Below, piece by piece: positions 659 through 61,120 of a stretch of DNA of 64,000 bases (position 1 is the stretch's first letter; each line of letters opens with the position of its first letter). Below the pieces are notes generated by a model. The model was not told the origin of the DNA, made no database searches, and was given only the letters and a program-made list of their open reading frames with translations. The position numbers and the translations under genes are program-made. The stretch is from an uncultured bacterium (GTDB lineage Bacteria; Patescibacteriota; Minisyncoccia; Phycocordibacterales; UBA11359), in contig CAIKZC010000005.1 in the NCBI GenBank assembly GCA_903831815.1, forward strand, positions 69 through 64,068, written 5' to 3'.

Positions 659-1876
659 CAATCTGGTCCCCTCTGGCGGTGACGCTAGAGAGTAAATTTG
701 GCTATATGCTGGAATATCTGAGTATTGAGCATTACTTTTTCTTTATATATAATTATATATAATTATAGAGAGAAAGTGAAAATATGTCTCATGCAGACAA
801 TCAGCAGGGAAGACTTATTAGTGTATTGAATAATGGATAAAGAGATTGTTCGTTGGATTCTAGAGTCTAGCGAACTATGCTGATTTGAAGAAATAGAAAG
901 TATGCGCGGGTCGCCCAGCTTTCTGACTTCAGCAAAGAAGTCTCTCTTTTCATTCCGGATGGTAGCAGACCACTGTCCATCCGGTCCATTATTCAATACA
1001 CTAATAAGAACCCTCAGAGACTATACGCCAAATATCTTACTATGAATAAAGCTACGGCAACTCTTATTGGAATTCTATTTACTGACGGCTGTCTTTCACC
1101 GAAAGGTAAAAACAGCTGGCGGTTTTACTTCAGCAATAAATCGGAAAAATTAATCTCTGTATTTCGAGATTGTATGATGCAAGTTTTTGCATTACCAACT
1201 ACTCGTATTCGTCTGGGTTTTACCCAAGATGGATTATACAGAGCAATTGTTGATTCTAAATCAGCGGGTGAATTATTTACCCAAAGATTTGGGACATTCC
1301 GAACATTGAAATATCACACAGGTGAGCTTACAAAAGCACATCTGCCGGTCAAAGAACTTCTTCAGCACAATGTTGCTGATGATTTTCTACGAGCGGCGTT
1401 TAGTTGTGACGGTGGAGTAAATTTGTATGCGGCTAGGCGTAGAAAAGGAAAACGCGAAACACTATGGTTGATTCGCGGAGTGTACCTTGCTTGTGCCCAT
1501 CCAATACTTCGAAATGAGTATTCTAATCTTCTGAAAGCACTAGGCGTTAATTCGCGTAATGTTGAGGGAGATGGAAAAATAAAAATAGAAACCAAGAAAG
1601 ATATACAAGTTTTCTATCAGAAAGTAGGATTTATTGAAGGTGTGCAAATAACACATACTTCTAAATTCTGGCCAAAGATAGAAAAGCAAAAATTACTTGA
1701 GAAAGTTATAAATTCTTATAACGATCCCAAGAGTGTGTATTTGTTGCCGCAATTTATTAAGTAAGATAATGATATAGTCCGGCCTCTATGGCGACATAGA
1801 GAGTTAAAGTAATTATTGGGTACTTTGACATTCTTCATTTCAATTTGATTAAGGAAATTTAGAATTAACATGTATG
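659..1876 (+). mobile_element. Intervening sequence (probable self-splicing intron) inside the 16S gene, carrying a homing-endonuclease ORF
   Basis: 16S similarity is lost after nt 658 and resumes at about 1877 with TAGATACCCCAGTAGTCCACGCC, the 785-805 region. The insert contains an ORF with two LAGLIDADG motifs, an (ATATATAATT)2 tandem repeat, and a perfect 24-bp inverted repeat (CTTATTAGTGTATTGAATAATGGA / TCCATTATTCAATACACTAATAAG) flanking about 120 nt. Boundaries are good to about +/-5 nt. Confidence 0.75.
1042..1764 (+). CDS. LAGLIDADG family homing endonuclease (double-motif, monomeric type) encoded in the 16S intron
   Basis: 240 aa. Motif 1 LIGILFTDGCLS and motif 2 LRAAFSCDGGVNL match LAGLIDADG/GIY-type spacing. 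Location inside an rRNA intron is typical for this family. Confidence 0.8.
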   Translation: MNKATATLIGILFTDGCLSPKGKNSWRFYFSNKSEKLISVFRDCMMQVFALPTTRIRLGFTQDGLYRAIVDSKSAGELFTQRFGTFRTLKYHTGELTKAHLPVKELLQHNVADDFLRAAFSCDGGVNLYAARRRKGKRETLWLIRGVYLACAHPILRNEYSNLLKALGVNSRNVEGDGKIKIETKKDIQVFYQKVGFIEGVQITHTSKFWPKIEKQKLLEKVINSYNDPKSVYLLPQFIK

Positions 1877-2927: not shown

Positions 2928-3635
2928 TTATTGTGTTGGGGCTTCCTTCGGCAGATAAGCCTCATAACCACCATCGCGTAAGAAACCCAATGGTCTGAAC
3001 GGTTCGAGAACATTGAGTGCCGTGATTAGTTCTGGAATGAGGTATTTACGATCCATCTGTCCATATTCAATCATGACCGGATCTGCTACTTCTGGTTCGC
3101 TCTTTTGGCGTAAGAGCTGACTGTTTCCTTCCATGGCCAGCTGAACCAGATGGTCGTTTATGTGTCCACGCAGGTCTTCTGGGTCTGCACAAAGAACATA
3201 GTCGTCCGAACATCTGACACCTGCGCCACATACCTTGTAGTGCACATATTGGTAGGCTTTGCCAAGTTTCTCCACTTCTTCGTTTGGAGTGATTTTGTAG
3301 AGAAAACAGCAAAAGGCTCCAATAACGGAGAAGAACAGAAGTTGTGATGAAATCAGGATCAGTGCCAGCGATGGGTCTTTTCCGGTCCAAGTCTGGCTGA
3401 AGCCCAGACTCCACTCGAGATAGATAGTTGCTGACAGAAGGAGACATAAAATCAGGCAAATGAAACCGTAGCGGTGAATCCGGCGATTTCGATTGTAAGC
3501 ATTCATTGTGTCTCTGGTAGGATTGACACCCTTCGTACGCTCTTGCCACTCCACGCACAGTTCTTCGTTCACCAAGCCTTCCTGAATCAGTTCACGGAAG
3601 GTAAGCTCGCGACTCTTTCGTTCATGAACTTTCAT
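2928..3635 (-). CDS. Hypothetical membrane protein (GC-rich cassette A')
   Basis: 235 aa ORF with two predicted TM segments. It is GC-enriched relative to neighbours. Own promoter TTGCAA-17-TATGGT and SD AGGAGG 5 nt before the ATG. Divergent from cassette A. Confidence 0.55.
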   Translation of the reverse strand: MKVHERKSRELTFRELIQEGLVNEELCVEWQERTKGVNPTRDTMNAYNRNRRIHRYGFICLILCLLLSATIYLEWSLGFSQTWTGKDPSLALILISSQLLFFSVIGAFCCFLYKITPNEEVEKLGKAYQYVHYKVCGAGVRCSDDYVLCADPEDLRGHINDHLVQLAMEGNSQLLRQKSEPEVADPVMIEYGQMDRKYLIPELITALNVLEPFRPLGFLRDGGYEAYLPKEAPTQ

Positions 3636-3729
3636 AGAACCTCCTGTAAAAGGACGTCTTCAACCCATAACTCTGGTCAGACCATACAATATTTATTGAA
3701 ATATTGCAATAGTTTAGTTTTTTAAAAAA

Positions 3730-3757
3730 TTGACATTTGTATATACTCTGATATAAT
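3730..3757 (+). promoter_or_regulatory. Near-consensus sigma70 promoter for cassette A
   Basis: TTGACA-16nt-TATAAT, followed by an about 80-nt leader and SD TAGGAGAATACC-ATG. A CAATATTTATTGAAATATTG palindrome sits just upstream and overlaps the divergent A' promoter. Confidence 0.65.
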
Positions 3758-3842
3758 TTTGTTAGAAATGTTTGAAAAGAGGATAGACTGCGATTTTCGC
3801 AGCCACTCCGATTAAAACATCGTTCTCTGCTAGGAGAATACC

Positions 3843-4514
3843 ATGACCATGTCAATGGGCATGACCCAGAGTCTGAAGCCGGAAATGTCGCTTCGGCAGA
3901 CTCTGAAAGCCGAACAGCGACAGGAGATGGTGGCGTCCATGACTTTGAGCATTCGGCTCGAGTTGGTCGCAGCCCTGCACAACGGACCTAACGGCACCAC
4001 AACCATCAGACCGATGGCGAGTTGTGTCCATTGCGGTCGCAATCTCACACCGCTCGAGATCATTAAGGGATTCAACAACGACCCGAATGATTTCTCGACG
4101 GCATGCACTGGATGTAAGCGGCGTTTCGATCCGACGCTAGTCTGGCATGATAACGTTGGCTCCATCGAATTGCCGTTCTACTGCAATATGCAGACTCAGT
4201 CGCGACTCGCTGGTCTAGAGACTTTGAGTCCTGTGGATTTCAAGGCGAAGGAACCGGCCCTCTACCACAGTGCGATTGTGCATAACGGCACGCTCAAGGC
4301 AGCTTTCCAACGGCTTAACATCGAATACTCGTTTGTGGAGATCACTGATCCAGCTATCAAGGTGAAACAGTTCCTTGGTAGGTTGCCAGACACGATCATC
4401 GCAGAAGTGTCTGGTCTCAAGCTTGCTGTCGTTCGGCGTCTGCGCAAAAAGTATCGCATCAAAGCATGTACTCAACGTGTGATGCTGGAGCAAGCCCAGG
4501 AATCTGTGGCGTAG
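3843..4514 (+). CDS. Hypothetical protein with CxxC...CxxC zinc-ribbon (GC-rich cassette A)
   Basis: 223 aa ORF, GC-enriched. CVHCGRN...ACTGCKRRF zinc ribbon. Strong SD. Confidence 0.6.
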   Translation: MTMSMGMTQSLKPEMSLRQTLKAEQRQEMVASMTLSIRLELVAALHNGPNGTTTIRPMASCVHCGRNLTPLEIIKGFNNDPNDFSTACTGCKRRFDPTLVWHDNVGSIELPFYCNMQTQSRLAGLETLSPVDFKAKEPALYHSAIVHNGTLKAAFQRLNIEYSFVEITDPAIKVKQFLGRLPDTIIAEVSGLKLAVVRRLRKKYRIKACTQRVMLEQAQESVA

Positions 4515-22643: not shown

Positions 22644-23291
22644 ATGGCTACCAAAACCATAGGTGTGGAGCAAAGGTTCGAATTGCTGGCTAAACTGGCA
22701 GCTCACCTTGATTGGGACTCGATTGACTCAAGGTCTGTCCAAGAGATAATCGATCATCCGGCCATTCCCGGCCAGCAGTTTACTCTCTTCCTCAAGAACG
22801 GTTGTAGATTTTCGTTTGGCGACCTAAAGATCGCTCCCGCGCCCTTTGATCCAGTCGCTTTCATTAGTAAAGGATGGAATATCGTCCTCGAAGAACATGA
22901 CAAGATGACAGGAGGTCTCGTTGAAGTTGATTTTAATCAGGTCGACTTCGAGGACTGTCTCGAGGAAGGTGAGACCATGATCACTGGTGAAGTGAAACTG
23001 ACGCGTCTCAAAGAGCGTAAGCGGATCCGTTACGGCGCCGTCACTTTTATGGGTCTTCTGAACGATTATCAGACTCGGGAAGTGAACAGTGTTCTTGAAA
23101 CGCTATTCCGCACCAAAAGTATTGTCCACCTCGATTTCTTTGGTGATGTTCTGCTTGGCCCAAACGGTAACCGATGCGTGTTGTGTCTCGATAGGGTCAG
23201 TGGTGGTCGGTGGATTGGTACCTACCGCCCCCTCGCGATTCATTGGTATCGTCGGTTTCTAACCCCCGTTTGTTCGCAAGTCAGTGTTTGA
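22644..23291 (+). CDS. Hypothetical protein, GC-rich cassette B (paralog of cassette C)
   Basis: 215 aa, GC-enriched, strong SD GAAAGGAGGTAGCTA-ATG. Shares FD..F...GW.IV.EH and CV.CL..R..G..W.GTYR.L...W blocks with C. Confidence 0.6.
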   Translation: MATKTIGVEQRFELLAKLAAHLDWDSIDSRSVQEIIDHPAIPGQQFTLFLKNGCRFSFGDLKIAPAPFDPVAFISKGWNIVLEEHDKMTGGLVEVDFNQVDFEDCLEEGETMITGEVKLTRLKERKRIRYGAVTFMGLLNDYQTREVNSVLETLFRTKSIVHLDFFGDVLLGPNGNRCVLCLDRVSGGRWIGTYRPLAIHWYRRFLTPVCSQVSV

Positions 23292-23353
23292 CGCATTCCA
23301 ACGCGTAATTGTAAAAAATGGAAAAGCCCCTGCACTTCAAGTGCGGGGGTTTA
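23291..23353 (+). repeat. Cassette-boundary repeat R, copy 1 (contains terminator hairpin)
   Basis: ACGCATTCCAACGCGTAATTGTAAAAAATGGAAAAGCCCCTGCACTTCAAGTGCGGGGGTTTA recurs almost identically at 24181-24243. A degenerate copy (GTAAAAAGCACCCTGCAAGTATCTTTTAC) lies at about 22485-22514 upstream of B. The similarity extends about 25 nt into the 3' coding ends of B and C. Confidence 0.8.
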
Positions 23354-23564
23354 TTATTTTCGGATACCTTTACAAATACCATCAAATAATGTATAATATA
23401 CCAAGATTGAACGTTGAAAAACTTGCAAGTGGTCATAGCCAAAAGGTGCGGAAAGGCTCAATAATTCGGCATTTATTGGCTATGACTACCAATGTGGTAC
23501 GTCCTCTAGCAAAAACTTGTCAGCGTGTCCGTATTACGGGCGTGCTAAAACAAAGGAGACTGTC

Positions 23565-24179
23565 ATGAAGGCGGCAACAGCTGTCAACGGCGGTCCAGAT
23601 GAAGTTCGGGAAGAGGGTCGTCGGTTGCCCTATGAATTGCAGGGGCAACTGCATGCCAAGTTTGTGGAGTGTCTGAACCAGATAAAAGCGGGAAATTTTA
23701 GCGCGCAATATTTTGGGAATCTCCTGCAGAAAACAACTGAAGGGGTAAGGTTCGTCGAAGAGTACATCATTGATTTCGACACTGCACCATTCTGTCCAGA
23801 AGGCTGGATTGTGGTTGAACACAAACCATGTGGAACATGGAAGTTTAATCCCGAGCATGTTATACCCCATCTTTTTCCAAGACAAGAGGGTAGTGGGAAG
23901 ATTTTGGGTATAAATCTCCGCAAAGACCTCGCTCTGATGCCAGTCGTGAATGCCAACTTGCTGGATCATTTCTACCTGAAGAACCCGGAGTTAATCCCCA
24001 AAGAATGGGAATGGAAAGAGGTCTACTTCTGGGGGACTATCTACGAGGATGAGTTTTACAAGCTGTGCGTTCGCTGCCTTACACATCGAGACGGCATGTG
24101 GAAGTGGGGATACAGACATCTAACTTCTTTTTGGGGGTACAACGCTCCTGCTCTTGTCTTTGCAAGTTTCAGTGCCTAA
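23565..24179 (+). CDS. Hypothetical Trp-rich protein, GC-rich cassette C (paralog of B)
   Basis: 205 aa from ATG 23565, with SD AAGGAGACTGTC-ATG. Promoter/leader homologous to that of B (CTTTACAAATA...AATGTATAATA...TTGAAAAACTTGC). Confidence 0.6.
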   Translation: MKAATAVNGGPDEVREEGRRLPYELQGQLHAKFVECLNQIKAGNFSAQYFGNLLQKTTEGVRFVEEYIIDFDTAPFCPEGWIVVEHKPCGTWKFNPEHVIPHLFPRQEGSGKILGINLRKDLALMPVVNANLLDHFYLKNPELIPKEWEWKEVYFWGTIYEDEFYKLCVRCLTHRDGMWKWGYRHLTSFWGYNAPALVFASFSA

Positions 24180-27838: not shown

Positions 27839-28375
27839 ATGTCATACGTGTCACATTTTCTTTCTCTACCCTTTTACCAGCAAATTCCGGCGGCGGCACT
27901 CATCGTTTTGATTGCTGTCTGCCTACTCCGATTGGTCAGAAGACCTGGCTTATTTCGCGGTAGCAACTGGAAGCCTGTCGTTTGCATATGTTCTAATGGC
28001 CGTGGTCAAATTGGGGTTGTTCTCCAACGTGATAAGCGCAAAGCTTCCAAATCGCATTGGAAAGAAATGCGGAAGTATATCAAGGAAGATAAAAAGAAGG
28101 GGAAAATCTACTCACCCAGAGTGTGGCGTCCCGTAATCGAATACGGATCAAAATTCGATAGGGACATGGTCTTTGTTTTTGATCATGACAATAACGGGTT
28201 GAAACAATTACTCGACTTATGTCTTGTTGAAGAAGACAACTTTTTTGTTTATTTTGAGCCAGTTCCTGATGGAAACAAAACGTTCAAAGATGCCTACCGG
28301 CACTTCTTCGGTCGGGAATACCAACTTCCGTGGCCAGAGAATGACGATGCCTGTTGGTGGCTTGGTAAGGCTTGA
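27839..28375 (+). CDS. Hypothetical protein with N-terminal TM helix, GC-rich cassette D
   Basis: 178 aa, GC-enriched, SD AAAGGAGTTCT-ATG. Own terminator at 28398-28436 (CCCGAGGAAGCGC...GCGCTTTCTCGGG followed by a T-run). Confidence 0.55.
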   Translation: MSYVSHFLSLPFYQQIPAAALIVLIAVCLLRLVRRPGLFRGSNWKPVVCICSNGRGQIGVVLQRDKRKASKSHWKEMRKYIKEDKKKGKIYSPRVWRPVIEYGSKFDRDMVFVFDHDNNGLKQLLDLCLVEEDNFFVYFEPVPDGNKTFKDAYRHFFGREYQLPWPENDDACWWLGKA

Positions 28376-29152: not shown

Positions 29153-29233
29153 ACCTTCAGAGTGAATGGGGGCCAATTCGGCAACCTGCTCTTTGATACA
29201 AAGTAATGTTCTAGTTTGAAAGGCGGGTCAGCT

Positions 29234-30010
29234 ATGATCGGTGAACACCCTACAATCGTTCGTTTAGAGCCCTCGGTTCAGCAGAATCAGGGGGAGTCGG
29301 CAATTCCGGTTGAAAAACCTGTCGCGCCGGACGCAGTTGTTCGGCCGGCAACAGTTCAGCCAGCAAAGACACTTGAGGAAACTATTAAGCAGATTCCTCG
29401 TGTTCAGGCCTCGTGGGCAAAAGATGGTGTCACATCCTTCTATTGTGGAATCTTTGCGGCTCTTTGGCAGAATGAGGGACTTTGTTTCCGAACAATCCCC
29501 TCGTTCAGTCCGAAGTTCAGAACGACCCAGTTCAAGGCTCCTGGTGGAGACGATAACCAGACGTACGAGATTCCTGTTGATTGTGCCGCAAGGGAATGGA
29601 AAGAGGAGGTCATGAAGCCTCATTCCAAGGTTTTCTTGCCGACTGCGGATATCAGATGTATTTATGTGCGTGACGTTCAACCGGATGAAAAGTTCCCGGA
29701 CGGCATCCACAGGAAATCGTTCTGGTTCGTCTGGGAGAATTCTTTGCCGAACTACCGTAATGCGGGTGTTCATTTCCGGACGAACAATAAGGATGATGGC
29801 GACAACATCCTGCTCCCGCCTGTAATGAAGCAGGCCACTTGGCTTGCAGGCAATATCTACAAGACGCATCTGCACGCCTTGGCTCTTGCCATCTTGACTG
29901 CAGTCAATGATGACGATCGTCTTCTGGAAGTTGTTCCTGAGAGACTGCTCGATTGGGCAGAGCTTCCCGAACATGTCGTTGGTGGGAGGCCGATCTACTA
30001 CAGGGCCTGA
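29234..30010 (+). CDS. Hypothetical protein, GC-rich cassette E
   Basis: 259 aa from ATG 29234, GC-enriched. Own terminator at 30045-30094. Confidence 0.55.
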   Translation: MIGEHPTIVRLEPSVQQNQGESAIPVEKPVAPDAVVRPATVQPAKTLEETIKQIPRVQASWAKDGVTSFYCGIFAALWQNEGLCFRTIPSFSPKFRTTQFKAPGGDDNQTYEIPVDCAAREWKEEVMKPHSKVFLPTADIRCIYVRDVQPDEKFPDGIHRKSFWFVWENSLPNYRNAGVHFRTNNKDDGDNILLPPVMKQATWLAGNIYKTHLHALALAILTAVNDDDRLLEVVPERLLDWAELPEHVVGGRPIYYRA

Positions 30011-35231: not shown

Positions 35232-37271
35232 TTAAACTAATTCACAATCGATCGTTTTGCGGTCTAGGTCGGTTTTAGTGATCTTGAATTTTACTTTATC
35301 CCCGAGAGTGTAACGTTTTTTGGTTTTGCGGCCGACAAGAGCATATTGTTTTTCTTGAAGTTCATAATAGTCATCGGAAAGAGCGCGAACACTGACCATA
35401 CCTTCGGCTTTGGTCTCGTCGTCTTCAACATAGACACCCCATTCGGTGACGCCAGTAATGGTGCCTTGCAGAAGTTTGCCGATTTTGTCACTCATAAATT
35501 CGACTTGTTTGTATTTTATGGATGAACGCTCGGCGTCGGCGGCGGCGATTTCTTTTTCAGTGATGTGAACAGCGGTGCGTTGATAGTTAGCAAGTTCGTT
35601 CGGATCAATTTTGGTGCCGTCGAGATGACTTTCGAGCAGGCGGTGTACAAGCAAGTCGGCGTAACGACGAATTGGGGAAGTGAAATGCGTATAATATTTA
35701 AAAGCCAAACCGAAATGACCGATATTTCTGGTCGAATAAATCGCTTTGGCCATCGAGCGAATAGCGGCAGTTTTGATGAGAGATTCTTGGGTTGTGCCGG
35801 TAACTTGCTTGAGTAATTTGCTGATATCGTCAGCGGTGATTTTACTGCCGTGAGGCATATGAAAACCGAGCGCTCGAGCAAATACGGAAAGGTTGGCGAG
35901 ACGGTCTTGATCAGGCAAATCGTGAATACGATAAATGAAAACAGGATCGTGACCGATTTTTTTGGCGACATGTTTATCGATGAATTCGGCCACTTCGCGG
36001 TTGGCCAGCAACATATATTCCTCGACCAGTTTGTGGGTATCTAGTCGTTCTTTTTTAAAAACGCGAAGTGGCTTGCCGTCTTTGTCTAGTTCAAATTTAA
36101 CTTCCTCTGATTCAAAATCAATAGCACCGGCCGCGAACTTTTTGGTTTGCAAAATTTTGGCGATTTTGTTTAGGGTGGTGAGAGGCGTGGCGAACAATTG
36201 CGCAGCCGCCGGCGTATTTCCAACCTGGTCTTTTTTATTATTTCCACTTTTTGGACTACCCTTGTGACCATCCAGAATATCTTGCGCACCCTCATAGCTG
36301 AAACGATTATTGGAATTGATAACGGTTTTGCCAAACCAGCGTTTGTGAATTTTTGCGTTTGCATCAATTTCAAAGATGGCGGAGAAGGCGAGTTTGTCTT
36401 CGTTGGGATTTAGACTGCAGAGGTCGTTGGAGAGAATTTCCGGCAACATTGGAATAGTGCGGTCAACTAAATAAACGGAAAAGCCGCGATTTTTCGCTTC
36501 TTCATCAAGTGCTGTTCCAGGACGCACATAATGTGAGACATCGGCAATGTGCACGCCGATCTCATACATTTTTACGCCGTTTTGTTCACCAAGTTCTTTG
36601 AAAGAAATAGCATCATCAAAGTCTTTAGCGTCAGCCGGGTCAATGGTGCAGGTGAGGGTATTACGCAAGTCTTTGCGTTTTGCGATATCGGATTGCGGAA
36701 TCGGTTTCTCGCGTTTTTCGATTGCGGCCGCTTCCTGCTCAACTTTTTCCGGATATTTTGATTCGAAACCTTTATCCAAAATAATGGATTGCATTTCAGC
36801 TTCGTGATCACCTTTTTTTCCGAGCAAGACGAGAATTTTTCCTTCCGGATCTCGGGTTGGATCGGTCCAATTAATGATTTGAACGAGAGCTTTGTTGCCG
36901 TCTAGATCCGCTGAAGTTTTGTCAGAGGGGGATTCGGTCACAACAATATTTTTATACATTTTTCGATTGTCCGGAATGAGGATCGGTTTCGGGCCGCTCG
37001 CATTCAGAACACCAACGAAAGTGCGCTTGGACTGTTTGAGTATTTTTGTCACCTCGCCCTGCTCGCGGCCCTTAATTTTCCCCGGCAAAATCTTAATTTC
37101 CACTTCATCTTTATCCAGTGCCAAATGTAACTTTTCATTCTGTATTTCAATATCTTCCTCGCGACCTGCCACTTCCAAAAAGCCGATACCTTTGGAATTG
37201 ATGTCAATAATACCTATATAGGCATTTTTCTCGTGTTTTTGGGGTTTTTGAGGCCCTTTTTTGTTATGCAT
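35232..37271 (-). CDS. rnr: Ribonuclease R / RNase II family 3'-5' exoribonuclease
   Basis: RNB catalytic block (HIADVSHYV...LVDRTIPMLPE...LCSL) and a C-terminal S1 domain. Leaderless-type start. Confidence 0.88.
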   Translation of the reverse strand: MHNKKGPQKPQKHEKNAYIGIIDINSKGIGFLEVAGREEDIEIQNEKLHLALDKDEVEIKILPGKIKGREQGEVTKILKQSKRTFVGVLNASGPKPILIPDNRKMYKNIVVTESPSDKTSADLDGNKALVQIINWTDPTRDPEGKILVLLGKKGDHEAEMQSIILDKGFESKYPEKVEQEAAAIEKREKPIPQSDIAKRKDLRNTLTCTIDPADAKDFDDAISFKELGEQNGVKMYEIGVHIADVSHYVRPGTALDEEAKNRGFSVYLVDRTIPMLPEILSNDLCSLNPNEDKLAFSAIFEIDANAKIHKRWFGKTVINSNNRFSYEGAQDILDGHKGSPKSGNNKKDQVGNTPAAAQLFATPLTTLNKIAKILQTKKFAAGAIDFESEEVKFELDKDGKPLRVFKKERLDTHKLVEEYMLLANREVAEFIDKHVAKKIGHDPVFIYRIHDLPDQDRLANLSVFARALGFHMPHGSKITADDISKLLKQVTGTTQESLIKTAAIRSMAKAIYSTRNIGHFGLAFKYYTHFTSPIRRYADLLVHRLLESHLDGTKIDPNELANYQRTAVHITEKEIAAADAERSSIKYKQVEFMSDKIGKLLQGTITGVTEWGVYVEDDETKAEGMVSVRALSDDYYELQEKQYALVGRKTKKRYTLGDKVKFKITKTDLDRKTIDCELV

Positions 37272-37299
37272 AGTTCACACTATACCAGAAAACTGTCAA

Positions 37300-37640
37300 A
37301 TCGCGAATTTTAAATAAAAAAACTGCCGACGATTTCATCGTCGGCAGTGAGGAAAGATGTGCGATACTCCTGAGGTTGTGTTAACGGAGTCACCGTATAG
37401 ACACAAGGTCAACTTCCAGATCGGTGGTATTCCATTTGTGACTGCCTGTGTTGCCGGAACAACAAGGTCTGCGTCTCCCACTCTATACTGCGAGCAAAGG
37501 AAGTTCCTCCAGTGGTTTACGGGACCACTAACTGCTTTGGGAAGCAGAAATGAAGCCAGCTGTAGGGATTCGAACCCCAATCACCAGGTTCTCATATAGA
37601 TGAGTCCTGAGCTTACCTATCTGTTTTCGCACTTTCCCTC
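37300..37640 (-). ncRNA. Candidate structured RNA with a tRNA-like T-arm near its 5' end (possibly a permuted or atypical tmRNA; identity unresolved)
   Basis: GC-rich about 340-nt interval with no credible ORF. Minus-strand terminator CTGCCGACGATGAAATCGTCGGCAG followed by T7 at 37311-37346. The minus strand reads TGGGG-TTCGAAT-CCCTA (a perfect T-arm consensus) followed by CAGCTGG-C at about 37555-37580. A candidate -35 TTGACA lies upstream, at about 37665. Confidence 0.45.
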
Positions 37641-37742
37641 TTTATCCAAATTAACCCTAGCAATTGAGGTAAATTTTGTCAAAAGATTCGCCAGTCATTG
37701 GCCACATTGACCAATTTGCCGGTATCTGTTAGTATCTTTCTT

Positions 37743-38114
37743 ATGTTAAAAATTAGATTACAACGAACAGGACGCAACCAAGAAAAGACTTTTCGTCTCG
37801 TCTTGACCGAATCAAAAAACTCCACCAAGAGTGGTAAGTTTTTGGAGATACTCGGCAACCATGATTTCCGTGTAAAAGACGGCACCAAGTTCAACAAAGA
37901 GCGTATTTTGTACTGGATGTCACAAGGTGTTAAACCAACTCCAACCGTTCACAACCTCTTGATTACTGAAAAAATTATTTCTGGCAAAAAAATCAACGTT
38001 CTCCCAAAGAAAACTGTACCTAAGAAAGAGGAAGTTGCAGCCGAAGCTCCTAAGGCCGAAAAAGCTGAAAAAACCGAAGCGAAATCTGAAGAAAAAGAAG
38101 CTCCTAAAGCGTAA
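37743..38114 (+). CDS. rpsP: 30S ribosomal protein S16 with a Lys/Glu/Ala-rich C-terminal tail
   Basis: MLKIRLQRTGRNQEKTFRLVL is the S16 N-terminus. Promoter TTGACC-17-TAGTAT with only 7 nt to the ATG (leaderless). Confidence 0.88.
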   Translation: MLKIRLQRTGRNQEKTFRLVLTESKNSTKSGKFLEILGNHDFRVKDGTKFNKERILYWMSQGVKPTPTVHNLLITEKIISGKKINVLPKKTVPKKEEVAAEAPKAEKAEKTEAKSEEKEAPKA

Positions 38115-58187: not shown

Positions 58188-58808
58188 ATGAAATTTGGTT
58201 CACACACAAAACAATTTCTCTTTGGAATGATACTCATCATTCCTTTGTTGTTTCTTGCTAATCTCGCGCACGCTAAAGTAATCGATCCTGATCCATCAGG
58301 TACGACCGTTCTCACCAGTTGTGGCGAGTTGGCATATCCTGGAACATATCTCATCAACAGTGTCTTAACTAACACCGACAACCTTGATCCTTGTATTACC
58401 ATTACTTCTGATGACGTGATTATTGGTGGTGACGGCAGTGTTGGTTTTAATCAAGATATTTCCGCAACAGGATTATTACCTGGCGACCGAGGTTTAAATT
58501 TCACACTTCAGGATATTACTTTCTCCGGTGATGTTTCTTCACAAGGTAATGGAGAAGCCTTTGGTGGAACAATTACGTTTGGTGGAGACGCTGATCTTAG
58601 CGGTACAGCGATAGCTTCCTCAACTATATTTAATGGAAATAGTTACAACGAAGGTGACATCACAGCTTCCTCGACTATTTTTAATGGTAGTAGTTACAAT
58701 GATTCAAATGGTACTGTAAATGGTGATGCGGTTTTAATAATAATGGTAGAATCGATTGGCTTAAAACTTCTGCCCTCCAAGATGACGCTTGGCGTTCGAT
58801 TGCGATGA
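58188..58808 (+). CDS. N-terminal segment (signal peptide and beta-helix-like repeats) of a giant BNR-repeat surface protein; frame breaks near 58735-58745
   Basis: Signal peptide MKFGSHTKQFLFGMILIIPLLFLANLAHA. The downstream frame (58727 onward) is open and continues with ...AWRSIAMSADGNRMFG, which is already a BNR repeat unit. A frameshift at the AATAATAATGG run joins the two ORFs. Confidence 0.6.
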   Translation: MKFGSHTKQFLFGMILIIPLLFLANLAHAKVIDPDPSGTTVLTSCGELAYPGTYLINSVLTNTDNLDPCITITSDDVIIGGDGSVGFNQDISATGLLPGDRGLNFTLQDITFSGDVSSQGNGEAFGGTITFGGDADLSGTAIASSTIFNGNSYNEGDITASSTIFNGSSYNDSNGTVNGDAVLIIMVESIGLKLLPSKMTLGVRLR

Positions 58809-61120
58809 GCGCTGATGGTAATCGAATGTTTGGCACTAGTTACAATGGAGGAATTTTTGAATATTCGAGCACCACGGATACATGGAATCAAATGTCAGGT
58901 ATAAGTGGGCAGCATACTTTATTTTCAATTGTCTCAAATGCTGCCGGAAATAAATTGGCCGCAACTGATTATGGTGGTTCCATTTGGGTATATTCGGATT
59001 CTTCGAGAGTTTGGACTGAAGCCACTGGGACAAGTGGACAAAATTGGGATGCGATAACTTCGAACGCCGCCGGAGATCGCTTGTTTGCGACTATTGATGG
59101 CAATTCCTCGATTTGGAAGTATTCAGATTCGGTCGGTAGTTGGGCAGAAATGCCTAATACCAGTGATCAGTATGGTTGGTATGGGATTACTTCAAACTCG
59201 GCAGGCGATCGACTCTTTGCTTTTGATGCCCATAATAATATTTGGACTTATTCAGATGTTTCAGGCGTTTGGGTTCAGCCGGCAGAAACGGAAGGTCATT
59301 ATTTTGCTAATAGCATTGCTTCAAATGCCGCCGGGGATAGAGCATATGCAATAGAAGTTAATAACGGAACATCTATATGGACATATTCCAGTGGATCGGG
59401 CTGGGCGAAAGCGACATCGACGGATGGGTATGGTTGGCAATCGGTAACATCAAATGCTGCTGGTGACAAAGTGGCAGCAGTCGACGGAAGCAACGGTGCA
59501 ATTTGGACATCATCTGATTATGGTGATCACTGGACTAAATTAAGTGAAACCGATAACAATAGTTGGTGGCGAATAGTTTCGAATGCTAATGGTGAGAAAT
59601 TGGCTGCAATAGATCAGGGTCATGGTTTTGTTTGGACCCATAGCGATGGGGTTTTTGGATCTCGTTATCTAACTTACAATGCAGGTGTAATTAATGGTGA
59701 TGCGACATTTACTGCCGATTCATATTCTTGGAACTCGGGCACTGCTCCCTTTCCTCAATTGGGAGACGTTACCGGAAACATCAAATTTATTCCTTCTTCG
59801 GGAACGACGACAATAACGTTTAACATTGGAATTAAGGAAACCAATTATGCTTGCGGTGAGGATATCTGTGTCTTTGGAGACGATACGTCCAATTGGGATT
59901 TTGGCGATTTTAATTCCGTATTTAATTTCTATGGTAATAGTCAATTTTATTCGGAAATTAAAGCTAGTACTGTAGTATTCAATGATATTAGTGTCAGTAA
60001 TTCCAATGAGATCATTGCTTCTACGACAATTTTTAATGATAATTCTGTTAATTTTACAAACAATATTATTGCCTCCCAAGCAATTTTCAATGACGGATGT
60101 TCTGGTAGTGGTTCAATAACCGCAAATTCAGTAGTATTTAATGATGAGAGTGTTATTTACGGTAATATTGATGCGGAATCTGTAGTTTATAATGATCAAA
60201 GTTTCAACGGAAGTTCGGTTTATGCGTCTACGACGATATTTAATAATGGGAGTAATAATGCAGGTGAGGTCAATGCCGAGATGACAACTTTTAACGATGA
60301 AAGTCACAATGATAGTGAAATAAACGGAAACGCCACGTTTAATATATCATGGGTTGATTGGACGAACATCCCTGAAACAAATGAACACAATTGGGATTCA
60401 GTTGTCTCAAACTCTGTTGGTGACAGACTGGCTGCGACAGTATACTACGGTTCCATCTGGATGTATTCAACTTCGACTGGTGTGTGGGCAGAAGCACCGG
60501 GCACAAGTGGTCAAGGTTGGGGGACTATCGCCTCAAACTCTGTCGGAGATCGTCTGGCTGCTGTTAGTCAAGGAGGTTCCATTTGGTCATACTCAGACTC
60601 AACCGGAGTATGGACTGAGTTTCCCGGTACCGACGAGCATAATTGGCAATCCGTTACCTCAAACTCTGTCGGAGATCGTTTAGCTGCAGTAGAGTATAGG
60701 GGTTCTATCTGGATGTATTCAGACTCAGACGGTGTTTGGACCGAAGCCACCGGTACCAGCGAGCATTCTTGGTATTCTATTGTTTCAAATGCTGTCGGAG
60801 ACAGACTAGCTGCTGTTGATAGTAGTGGTTCAATCTGGACATACTCAGACTCAACAGGTGTCTGGGCTGAAATTCCTAATACCAGCGGACCTAGTTGGCA
60901 ATCCCTCACGTCTAATGCTGAAGGTGACCGATTAGCGGCAGTTGATTACAATAACGATGGTTCTATTTGGACTTCATCTGATTATGGTGATCACTGGAGT
61001 GAAGTTCCTAATACAATAGGACAGGGTGGTGGTTGGTATTCTGTTGCTTCAAATGCCGAAGGTGATCGATTGGTCGCCGGCGAGTACTCCGGTGGTTCAC
61101 TTTGGACTTCTTCTGACTAG
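58805..61120 (+). CDS. BNR/Asp-box repeat beta-propeller surface protein, middle segment, ending at an in-frame TAG
   Basis: Dozens of repeats of the form W.SITSNAAGDRLAA...SIWTYSDS.GVWTE (SxDxGxTW Asp-box). The TAG at 61118-61120 interrupts a repeat (SSD-TAG-GVTWT), and the same frame stays open to the window end. Confidence 0.7.
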   Translation: MSADGNRMFGTSYNGGIFEYSSTTDTWNQMSGISGQHTLFSIVSNAAGNKLAATDYGGSIWVYSDSSRVWTEATGTSGQNWDAITSNAAGDRLFATIDGNSSIWKYSDSVGSWAEMPNTSDQYGWYGITSNSAGDRLFAFDAHNNIWTYSDVSGVWVQPAETEGHYFANSIASNAAGDRAYAIEVNNGTSIWTYSSGSGWAKATSTDGYGWQSVTSNAAGDKVAAVDGSNGAIWTSSDYGDHWTKLSETDNNSWWRIVSNANGEKLAAIDQGHGFVWTHSDGVFGSRYLTYNAGVINGDATFTADSYSWNSGTAPFPQLGDVTGNIKFIPSSGTTTITFNIGIKETNYACGEDICVFGDDTSNWDFGDFNSVFNFYGNSQFYSEIKASTVVFNDISVSNSNEIIASTTIFNDNSVNFTNNIIASQAIFNDGCSGSGSITANSVVFNDESVIYGNIDAESVVYNDQSFNGSSVYASTTIFNNGSNNAGEVNAEMTTFNDESHNDSEINGNATFNISWVDWTNIPETNEHNWDSVVSNSVGDRLAATVYYGSIWMYSTSTGVWAEAPGTSGQGWGTIASNSVGDRLAAVSQGGSIWSYSDSTGVWTEFPGTDEHNWQSVTSNSVGDRLAAVEYRGSIWMYSDSDGVWTEATGTSEHSWYSIVSNAVGDRLAAVDSSGSIWTYSDSTGVWAEIPNTSGPSWQSLTSNAEGDRLAAVDYNNDGSIWTSSDYGDHWSEVPNTIGQGGGWYSVASNAEGDRLVAGEYSGGSLWTSSD

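Follow-up and report, generated by a model that had tools for sequence, protein, structure and literature searches.

The spacer between rpsP and rnr in this genome carries a 396-bp insertion (positions 37,311–37,706) that is confined to a single strain among the loci compared and matches no known family in the searches described below. On motif grounds it is clearly tRNA-derived, by what we take to be descent from tRNA genes. Our preferred explanation, held tentatively and at somewhat less than even confidence, is that the insert is a recently acquired tRNA-gene cassette that has since decayed and now persists as a largely neutral relic. The first-pass annotation had proposed a permuted or otherwise atypical tmRNA, or else a novel tRNA-like RNA. 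The former proposal failed, and the latter survives in a modest form only, in that the element appears tRNA-derived and is plausibly transcribed; any conservation or function would be hypothetical.

An insertion between two divergent promoters

The window, by which we mean the whole 64-kb stretch of DNA analysed, comes from a Paceibacteria-type member of the Patescibacteria, a candidate-phyla-radiation bacterium, and has rpsP and rnr divergently transcribed around the insert, with an SMC-like gene, rnr, rpsP, khpA, trmD and rpoB in the neighbourhood. Its rpsP–rnr spacer is 474 nt long, and the rnr ATG lies at 37,271. We compared this region with 80 rnr loci from GTDB species and with nine closer contigs found via a protein index. 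In the 7 relatives with kept rpsP–rnr synteny and an RNase R 76–85% identical, the spacers measure 20–90 nt and the element is absent; across all 80 loci and nine contigs, the only one carrying it was L086, which represents the same strain (99.95% identical). Alignment of the spacers, which took in L135, L081, L082, L083 and L085, showed that the relatives have GGTCAA followed by 3–25 nt and then AAATTCGCGATTTGACA, and that the window has 396 additional bases after GGTCAA, a feature assigned to neither strand. Were this genome sister to every relative sampled, parsimony would formally not distinguish a gain here from one loss in the ancestor of those relatives.

On either side, the insert is flanked by an intact native promoter (TTGACC-17-TAGTAT for rpsP and TGGTATAGT for rnr). 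The rnr promoter, located 7 nt 5′ of the ATG and kept in all relatives, sits downstream of the terminator of the element, so that rnr keeps its own, probably leaderless, start. Neither terminal inverted repeats nor a clear target-site duplication were found at 37,311 and 37,706, and the element is present as a single copy within the 64-kb window, on which grounds a MITE or insertion sequence was rejected. A likeness of the form GCGA..TTTGACA on both sides was considered as a target-site duplication and discarded, since alignment with L135, the closest relative, identified the right copy as native, and the left copy, which lies within the insert, matches only weakly. In two other Paceibacteria (L028 and L053), the same spacer holds GC-rich, terminator-bearing segments.

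Searches for homologues and for a donor of the insert were negative throughout. The signature combining the T-arm with CAGCTGG (GGTTCGAATCCNNNCAGCTGG) occurred at 48 loci in JGI metagenomes, none of them a homologue: these were chance matches in coding sequence, two tRNA-His genes and one unrelated unannotated family. Scans of IMG/VR with various segments of the element returned chance matches or tRNA genes only, both sets of scans being restricted to exact patterns, and blastn against phage and plasmid records gave no match to the element. At E ≤ 10, Rfam 15 cmscan with 801-nt and 171-nt queries detected no tmRNA, alpha-, beta- or cyano-tmRNA, tRNA or RNase P, and no SRP, 6S, group I or II intron, T-box, riboswitch, HEARO, OLE, GOLLD or ROOL RNA.

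A predicted transcript with tRNA-like segments

A promoter-like site on the minus strand (37,654–37,682) is made up of a perfect −35 hexamer, TTGACA (37,682–37,677), a 17-nt spacer and a −10 hexamer, TAGGGT (37,659–37,654), that agrees with the consensus at 3 of 6 positions and therefore fell below the threshold of the consensus scan; the predicted start is near 37,647. At the other end lies an intrinsic terminator (37,315–37,348, minus strand) with a 12-bp stem (37,348–37,322, seven G-C pairs), a 3-nt loop and a U7 tract (37,321–37,315), which has a pair probability of ~1.0 and ends 44 nt before the rnr ATG. The perfect −35, weak −10 and strong terminator suggest that the unit is probably transcribed from the minus strand, yielding a structured RNA of ~330 nt (37,315–37,647, ~333 nt as predicted) with paired ends. 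The terminator with its seven T upstream of rnr is thus as the first-pass annotation had it, and its promoter-to-terminator unit stands for the terminator and the −35 but only partially for the promoter. The label "GC-rich" is true in a relative sense, the element having 48.5% GC against 42.8% for the window, similar to rRNA (49%).

Two open reading frames of 80–81 aa span the element, but their codon-usage scores (−0.32 and −0.27, compared to +0.32 ± 0.12 for the real genes of the window) mark them as non-coding, so that the absence of a plausible ORF, claimed earlier, holds. When the two translations were compared with predicted proteins, one had no match, and the matches of the other were confined to repeat or low-complexity proteins. 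The predicted transcript folds with a minimum free energy (MFE) of −114 kcal/mol (z = −3.7), and the antisense strand comes close to this stability (z = −3.3). Its predicted 5′ end is linked to the base of the terminator by a 13-bp closing helix, in which GAGGGAA-A-GUGCGA (37,627–37,640) pairs with UCGCAC-AUC-UUUCCUC (37,349–37,364), located directly 5′ of the terminator on the same minus strand; the duplex energy of −17.2 kcal/mol was equalled by 52 of 5000 shuffles (~1%). As a candidate stand-alone small RNA gene, the unit combines a strong terminator, a perfect −35, a weak −10, non-coding character and a fold z of −3.7.

Within this predicted transcript, a degenerate tRNA-like module, here called module A (37,555–37,621, minus strand), contains in tRNA order a D-loop-like segment (GAUAGGUA), a CAGG/CCUG stem, a variable loop (GUGAU), a T-arm, the heptamer CAGCUGG and a final C. 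The T-arm (37,563–37,579, minus strand; UGGGGUUCGAAUCCCUA) is canonical, with UGGGG at 37,579–37,575, the loop UUCGAAU at 37,574–37,568 and CCCUA at 37,567–37,563. By chance, 64 kb should hold 0.22 copies of the T-loop motif GGTTCRANTCC and a 474-nt spacer ~0.002, so the T-arm is not a product of chance; over 120 phage tRNA genes of differing specificity contain an identical 18-mer. Its pair probability in the thermodynamic ensemble is only ~0.5. The CAGG/CCUG stem encloses an expanded 17-nt loop, which forms CUCAU/AUGAG. The segment following the T-arm (37,555–37,562, minus strand), consisting of CAGCUGG (37,562–37,556) and C (37,555), resembles a 3′ acceptor strand with a discriminator base, and is unpaired in the MFE fold; the label "acceptor-like" is itself an interpretation rather than an observation. 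As reported earlier, its partner strand is missing: no CCAGCTG lies nearby on the minus strand, upstream or downstream, where the only match nearby is the site's own reverse complement, and no G:U variant exceeds 5 bp, the best being a chance-level match at CCGGC.

In nhmmer and local alignments with phage tRNAs, module A keeps their linear order between the D-loop and the acceptor strand, apart from 8 inserted nucleotides in the anticodon loop (nhmmer E = 0.056 for tRNA-likeness). The best matches to its flanks (AACCU.G.GAU before the T-arm) were all tRNA-Trp(CCA) genes, and the module accordingly seems to resemble phage tRNA-Trp genes most. We also considered a copy of a host-type tRNA-Trp, but the T-arm of a Paceibacteria tRNA-Trp (L023) differs and no copy is obvious. 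Neither ARAGORN nor the Rfam tRNA model RF00005 detected the module.

A second degenerate module, module B (37,488–37,554, minus strand), comprises the hairpin CUGCUU-CCCA-AAGCAG (37,547–37,532), an anticodon-like arm GUGGU-CCCGUAA-ACCAC (37,528–37,512; anticodon CGU) and a stub (GGAGGAACUUCC). With one further pair, the arm reads AGUGGU-CCCGUAA-ACCACU (37,529–37,511, minus strand; pair probability >0.9), so that the T-arm, CAGCTGG-C and both hairpins quoted in the first-pass annotation are all present on the minus strand. The arm begins 26 nt after the end of module A, which is the canonical tRNA distance, and shares 20 of 21 positions with its counterpart in a phage tRNA-Thr(CGU) (L137), a match subject to ascertainment bias in that the search used this 17-mer. 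The two modules together follow the layout of two tandem tRNAs in L186. Further downstream, a minihelix-like hairpin (UUGUGU-CUAU-ACGG-UGACU-CCGU-UA-ACACAA; 37,376–37,406, minus strand) might, on weak evidence, be a T-arm with a 2-nt loop deletion; its best local match, to a tRNA-Ala over the variable loop and T-arm, was not above shuffles (39/60). Outside the T-arm, tRNA-likeness is statistically weak: the nhmmer E-value is that given above, the matches of this hairpin and of the D-loop-like AUAGGUA do not exceed shuffles, and the Thr-arm match derives from a pattern of the element itself.

Relic, small RNA or known RNA gene

Under the relic explanation, the 396-bp insert would have been recently gained in the rpsP–rnr spacer and would have tRNA-gene DNA as its source, a short tandem tRNA cassette such as phages carry being the most likely one. 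Module A would have kept its D-loop-like segment, anticodon-like stem, variable loop, perfect T-arm and 3′ acceptor strand, while its D-stem and the 5′ partner of that strand were lost and its anticodon loop gained 8–9 nt; module B would have kept a Thr(CGU)-type anticodon arm, with its D-arm and T-arm truncated. The resulting ~330-nt RNA would not be processable into an aminoacylatable tRNA or a tmRNA. Such an insert, most likely young and largely neutral, would be tolerated because it lies between two intact native promoters and because its own terminator insulates rnr. Phage tandem tRNA cassettes and tRNA pseudogenes are matched in the T-arm shared with many phage tRNAs, in the D-loop-, anticodon-stem- and variable-loop-like segments in tRNA order, in the second anticodon-arm-like hairpin at the canonical distance, and in being framed, like a small RNA operon, by promoter and terminator. 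Unlike in such cassettes, no module of the element folds as a cloverleaf: only the T-arm and the variable loop are canonical, the acceptor strands are unpaired, no D-stem is left, the anticodon loop has grown to 17 nt and the remaining T-arms are cut short. Moreover, the element goes unscored by tRNA models and no donor was identified. Attachment-site tRNA 3′ remnants of integrative elements likewise comprise a portion from the T-arm to the discriminator without the 5′ half, in lineage-specific inserted DNA; here, the element has neither an intact tRNA gene nor an integrase or direct repeat on its flanks, and the tRNA similarity reaches the D-loop.

Some of the data fit a neutral relic less well. 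The T-arm is perfect (17 of 17 positions canonical) beside badly decayed tRNA-like pieces, unlike what uniform neutral decay predicts, and the closing helix, at ~1% of shuffles, is of a kind that one would expect in a stable RNA. The rRNA-level GC content and the fold z of −3.7 are further observations of this kind. These features could instead reflect a functional, lineage-specific tRNA-mimic small RNA with paired ends, whose intact T-arm may serve as a handle for T-arm-binding enzymes or tRNA-binding proteins, that is, a tRNA-derived RNA with a regulatory or scaffolding role, comparable in principle to YrlA or to the tRNA-like domain of tmRNA. The terminator, the perfect −35 and the lack of coding potential would also be expected of such an RNA, and YrlA RNAs likewise join a closing stem, a T stem-loop and further hairpins (PMC4201824). 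Against it, no homologue was found in the loci and databases searched, and consequently there is neither covariation nor any sign of selection on the element; it is missing from all close relatives, the antisense strand folds almost equally well, and the T-arm pairs in only about half of the ensemble. We consider this alternative possible but rather unlikely.

The resemblance to YrlA extends to a stem formed by the two ends of the RNA, a hairpin 5′ of a canonical T stem-loop, more hairpins after it, and the status of a tRNA-derived non-coding RNA that is not aminoacylated. YrlA is a tRNA mimic of ~100–150 nt bound by Rsr/Ro60 and encoded on the same strand as rsr, at most 4 kb away, with a nearly invariant D stem-loop after an acceptor-like hairpin and a 5′ GNCGAAN0-1G motif (PMC4201824). 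Its order, V – T – acceptor-like hairpin – D stem-loop with G18 G19, differs from that of the element, in which the D-loop-like AUAGGUA precedes the T-arm and the loops after the T-arm (CCCA and CCCGUAA) lack GG. In the 5′ strand of the element (GUGCGAAAACAG), UGCGAA is a near miss to the motif, with no G within 0–1 nt, and no rsr or TROVE-domain gene was found among the window ORFs scanned, let alone an adjacent one. A permuted tRNA or YrlA-like order was rejected given the D-like segment before the T-arm and later loops without tRNA invariants. The earlier "T-arm-first" argument falls as well: a D-loop-like segment, then an anticodon-like stem and then a variable loop come before the T-arm, as in normal tRNA order. 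A bolder version, which we regard as improbable, would make the element a new kind of functional RNA: a ~330-nt end-paired, tRNA-derived scaffold gained beside the RNase R gene, perhaps tethering or modulating an exoribonuclease or another tRNA-binding factor by analogy with Y RNAs.

An unconventional functional tRNA gene missed by standard tools would require an undetected intron or large insertion separating the T-arm from a distant 3′ acceptor strand. The hexamer GUGCGA (37,632–37,627), at approximately the right distance 5′ of AUAGGUA, does pair with UCGCAC (37,364–37,359) some 200 nt past the T-arm, and divergent group I (IA) introns in Patescibacteria tRNA genes have been reported to escape both RF00028 and ARAGORN (PMC13011429). 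Bacterial tRNA introns are known in the anticodon loop, not past the T-stem. In addition, the D-stem cannot form, the anticodon loop has 17 nt, no 5′ splice-site U plus terminal G restores a T-stem and acceptor, no exon pair restores a tRNA, no group I model including RF00028 matched at E ≤ 10, and relatives lack the element, all of which makes this reading very improbable.

Lying immediately 5′ of rnr on the same strand, with a terminator at its end, the element might also be taken for a cis-regulatory leader (attenuator) of that gene. The conserved native rnr promoter lies past the terminator, relatives do without a leader, and no riboswitch or T-box was matched, leaving a leader with hardly any likelihood.

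The tmRNA proposal is largely refuted. Its appeal lay in a structured unit of ~330 nt with paired ends and a T-arm towards its 5′ side, in the CAGCU after the T-arm, which resembles the start of a tmRNA 3′ acceptor strand and places a U at position 70, and in the neighbouring rnr, which is functionally tied to trans-translation. ARAGORN, which is able to detect permuted genes, found nothing in the element under default settings with the permuted search included. Thresholds relaxed to 50–80% returned only noise, some of it in neighbouring coding sequence (for example the tag "AKTDR*" at 50%). No model of the Rfam tmRNA clan matched at E ≤ 10. For smpB, a motif search whose scope was the window and the collected loci gave no match. 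Compared to ssrA, the element lacks an acceptor stem (the missing 5′ strand finding only the 5-bp match at CCGGC), CCA, A73, a G3:U70 pair with a real partner, the pseudoknot pattern and an ORF with a hydrophobic tag end, the frames read giving no A/L/V-rich terminal tag. A one-piece layout does not fit either, as the T-arm lies ~70 nt from the 5′ end and the end pairing has no G:U at position 3. The segments preceding the T-arm follow ordinary tRNA order, and an essential RNA is not expected as a strain-specific insertion absent from 7 syntenic relatives. RNase P RNA, expected to show CR-I GAGGAAAGUCC with CR-V ACAGAA..GGCUUA and a P4 pseudoknot, was rejected, because the likeness at GAGGGAAAGUGCG is superficial and pairs with the extreme 3′ end and no Rfam model matched.

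Implications for Patescibacteria genomes

The main value of these results is negative: what looked like a permuted tmRNA is a strain-specific, apparently tRNA-derived insertion, and annotation of the locus as ssrA or as a tRNA is therefore unwarranted. The case suggests that the tiny genomes of Patescibacteria can take foreign tRNA-like DNA into a promoter spacer and retain it there while leaving two flanking, apparently leaderless genes undisturbed, and that unannotated structured segments have repeatedly settled in the rpsP–rnr spacer within this group. Were the element a new functional RNA, the spacer segments of the other two Paceibacteria would be analogous fast-evolving RNAs. If its transcript is stable and functional, the insert would represent a young case of a tRNA piece re-used as a small RNA.

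The element and its genomic setting

The window belongs to the genome of a member of the Patescibacteria (CPR), and the element lies in the spacer between rnr (35232–37271, minus strand; RNB, CSD and S1 domains) and rpsP, encoding S16 (ATG at 37743, plus strand), which is followed by khpA and trmD. No GTDB species representative has an RNase R more than 56% identical to that of the window, and the best GTDB matches are all Paceibacteria or Parcubacteria-type MAGs. The −10 hexamers of rnr (TATAGT, 37279–37284) and rpsP (TAGTAT, 37730–37735) each end 7 nt ahead of the respective ATG (37271 and 37743), an arrangement also kept in the spacers of relatives; judging from the sequence, both divergent genes look leaderless.

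Elsewhere in the window, the 16S rRNA gene (1–2628) is split by a ~1.2-kb insertion (about 740–1972) encoding a LAGLIDADG-type homing endonuclease (ORF 1042–1764, plus strand; Pfam LAGLIDADG_3, E = 1.5e-9). The rRNA genes are apparently unlinked, since no 23S rRNA, tRNA-Ile or tRNA-Ala gene follows the 16S gene within the window. Sizeable ORFs without Pfam domains (178–771 aa; 2928–4514, 22644–24179, 27839–28375, 29216–30010 and 58805–61120) include one of 771 aa and two between the 16S gene and prfA.

The observation that singled out this spacer is real: every sequence quoted in the first-pass annotation was found on the minus strand by direct reading. These comprise a T-arm, UGGGG-UUCGAAU-CCCUA (37579–37563), directly followed by CAGCUGG-C (37562–37555), two hairpins (37547–37532 and 37529–37511), and a terminator with a 12-bp stem (37348–37322) and then U7. 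By chance, the T-loop motif would be expected 0.22 times across the whole window. It was also correctly noted that the minus strand lacks the acceptor partner CCAGCTG and that there is no plausible ORF: two ORFs of 80–81 aa cross the element, but both score as non-coding in codon usage (−0.3 each, versus +0.32 ± 0.12 for window genes). The proposed promoter stood in part, having a perfect TTGACA and 17-nt spacing, but its TAGGGT matches the −10 consensus at 3/6 positions and is not listed by the promoter scan. The GC content of the element (48.5%, versus 42.8% for the window) is close to that of rRNA. The minus strand folds at −114 kcal/mol (z = −3.7), and the plus strand nearly as stably (z = −3.3).

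The rpsP–rnr spacer in relatives

Relatives were taken from protein-index RNase R sequences 76–86% identical to that of the window. In every one with a known upstream region (loci L081, L082, L083, L085 and L135, and the gene maps of contigs P0008 and P0011), S16 and rnr lie side by side in divergent orientation, as in the window, only 20–90 nt apart. Spacer alignment to these relatives delimits the extra window DNA to 396 bp (37311–37706), inserted after a conserved GGTCAA and ahead of AAATTCGCGATTTGACA. Beside it, the native promoters of rpsP (TTGACC-17-TAGTAT) and rnr (TGGTATAGT, 7 nt ahead of the ATG) are intact. The insert shows neither terminal inverted repeats nor a clear target duplication, and the window holds no second copy.

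Apart from the window, only L086 carried the element; it is another assembly of this strain, with 99.95% identity across 8 kb. Neither nhmmer on 80 rnr loci from related species nor blastn against phage and plasmid collections returned a match; the T-arm + CAGCTGG signature retrieved 48 loci from JGI metagenomes, none element-like beyond the pattern; IMG/VR scans with other element segments gave chance matches only; and the two translated open frames yielded either no match or repeat-protein noise. The element is thus an orphan in all collections searched.

Both flanks of rnr are variable, because a PemK-family toxin gene lies just downstream in three relatives (L082 7338–7814, L083 3722–4114, L135 2626–3018), where the window has an SMC-like gene. 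In Paceibacteria, the rpsP–rnr spacer itself repeatedly holds lineage-specific additions (L028 3680–3960 and L053 3785–3960, both minus; L036 3691–3960; L084 1868–2378). That of L084 is a small protein-coding gene upstream of rnr (called gene 76 aa). L028 and L053 carry GC-rich structured segments with terminators on the strand opposite rnr (~270 nt, z = −3.0, with paired ends, and ~170 nt, z = −4.5, respectively); neither segment matches Rfam or resembles the window element, and the two are unlike each other.

An unannotated intergenic motif, GGTTCGAATCCCC[ACT]CAGCTGG[AG], is common to about 20 JGI metagenome contigs, lying around the GGTTCGAATCC...CAGCTGG match (L091, L096, L098, L102, L103, L106, L108, L111, L113, L115, L118, L120, L123, L126, L129, L131, L132). 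Its CC.CAGC forms a stem with GCUG.GG further downstream, in which the inner pairs covary and the loop is UGGA; the motif often lies between an upstream AAGGTAGAAC..AACCTT and a downstream D-arm-like GUAUCAAUAGGUAGUAC. It matched no Rfam family (gathering threshold or E ≤ 1) and drew no ARAGORN call, and its varied neighbours (IS110 transposase, Cas3/WYL, dnaN and others) include no TROVE-domain gene. The motif may mark a tRNA-like RNA or a recombination site that is as yet undescribed, and appears unrelated to the window element except through the search pattern.

Likeness to tRNA and tmRNA

Many phage-encoded tRNA genes, of several specificities, contain the exact T-arm 18-mer UUGGGGUUCGAAUCCCUA. 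Among these carriers, those that best match the 13 nt preceding the T-arm (8–9/13) are tRNA-Trp(CCA) genes, one non-tRNA-Trp match tying at 8/13; the flank reads AACCUUGCGAU-UGGGG... in tRNA-Trp(CCA) genes versus AACCUGGUGAU-UGGGG... in the element. The T-arm of a Paceibacteria tRNA-Trp (L023) differs from that of the element, and a host-type tRNA-Trp therefore gains no support as the source. In nhmmer and local alignments, GAUAGGUAAGCU-CAGG of the element is collinear with the D-loop, the 3' strand of the D-stem and the 5' strand of the anticodon stem of real tRNAs. Because of this upstream collinearity the T-arm is not 'first', as had been claimed, and belongs instead to a degenerate tRNA-like module with its parts in the usual order (module A, 37555–37621, minus), whose anticodon loop has an 8-nt insertion relative to real tRNAs and in which the D-stem and the 5' acceptor strand have lost their pairing.

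A second module (B, 37488–37554, minus) directly follows the discriminator of module A. Its hairpin GUGGU-CCCGUAA-ACCAC begins 26 nt after that discriminator, the canonical anticodon-arm position, and is identical at 20/21 positions to the corresponding arm of a phage tRNA-Thr(CGU). In the tRNA-Thr(CGU) of phage contig L137 (7831–7904), the anticodon loop is unusual (CCCGUAA): position 33, almost universally U, is C, and window hairpin 37529–37511 has this loop too. A tandem tRNA pair in L186 can be aligned along the entire stretch, given deletions in the D-arm (11 nt), variable loop (2 nt) and T-loop (4 nt). Another hairpin (37396–37384) is T-arm-like with a 2-nt loop deletion, a match not above shuffles. 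Individually these similarities are weak (nhmmer E = 0.056; two segment tests not significant), and one was ascertained through a pattern drawn from the element itself; together they fit an origin in a small tandem tRNA cassette.

The proposal of a permuted or atypical tmRNA is rejected. The sole ARAGORN call in the window, with permuted tmRNA genes included, was a tRNA-Thr outside the element; thresholds lowered to 50–80% yielded implausible 'permuted tmRNA' calls, which we regard as noise because they fall on both strands and in neighbouring coding sequence. Rfam 15 matches at gathering thresholds were limited to 16S pieces and the tRNA-Thr outside the element. At E ≤ 10 (801 nt, then 171 nt) there was no match to tmRNA, permuted tmRNA families, tRNA, RNase P, SRP, 6S or introns, the top tRNA-like match being the T-arm to mascRNA (13 bits). 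A complementary acceptor strand, CCA and A73 are all missing from the element, and no frame holds a tag-like peptide. Relatives lack the element, and an essential RNA such as tmRNA is not expected as a strain-specific insertion, though relocation is formally possible.

A predicted RNA and its possible roles

The 5' end of the predicted transcript (~37647–37315, minus), GAGGGAA-A-GUGCGA, pairs with UCGCAC-AUC-UUUCCUC just ahead of the terminator (−17.2 kcal/mol, equalled by only 52 of 5000 shuffles). Pair probability is >0.9 for several internal hairpins and the terminator and ~0.5 for the T-arm, which is flawless, the remaining tRNA-like parts having decayed. The rare end-pairing helix, the hairpins and terminator and the flawless T-arm all favour the main alternative, namely that the ~330-nt RNA has been co-opted as a functional mimic of tRNA, as does an overall layout resembling YrlA-type Y RNAs, with a closing stem, a hairpin, a T stem-loop and more hairpins (PMC4201824). 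The defining features of YrlA are nevertheless absent: the acceptor-like hairpin is not followed by a D stem-loop bearing G18 G19, the element lacks the 5' GNCGAAN0-1G motif, and rsr was not found within 4 kb. We consider such re-use unlikely, and an unconventional tRNA, an rnr leader and a tmRNA, taken together, highly improbable.

Our preferred reading, advanced tentatively, is that the element is a recently acquired insertion derived from tRNA genes: a small tandem tRNA cassette would have been acquired in the rpsP–rnr spacer and then decayed, and the insert is probably still transcribed into a predicted ~330-nt structured RNA that would have neither tRNA nor tmRNA function.
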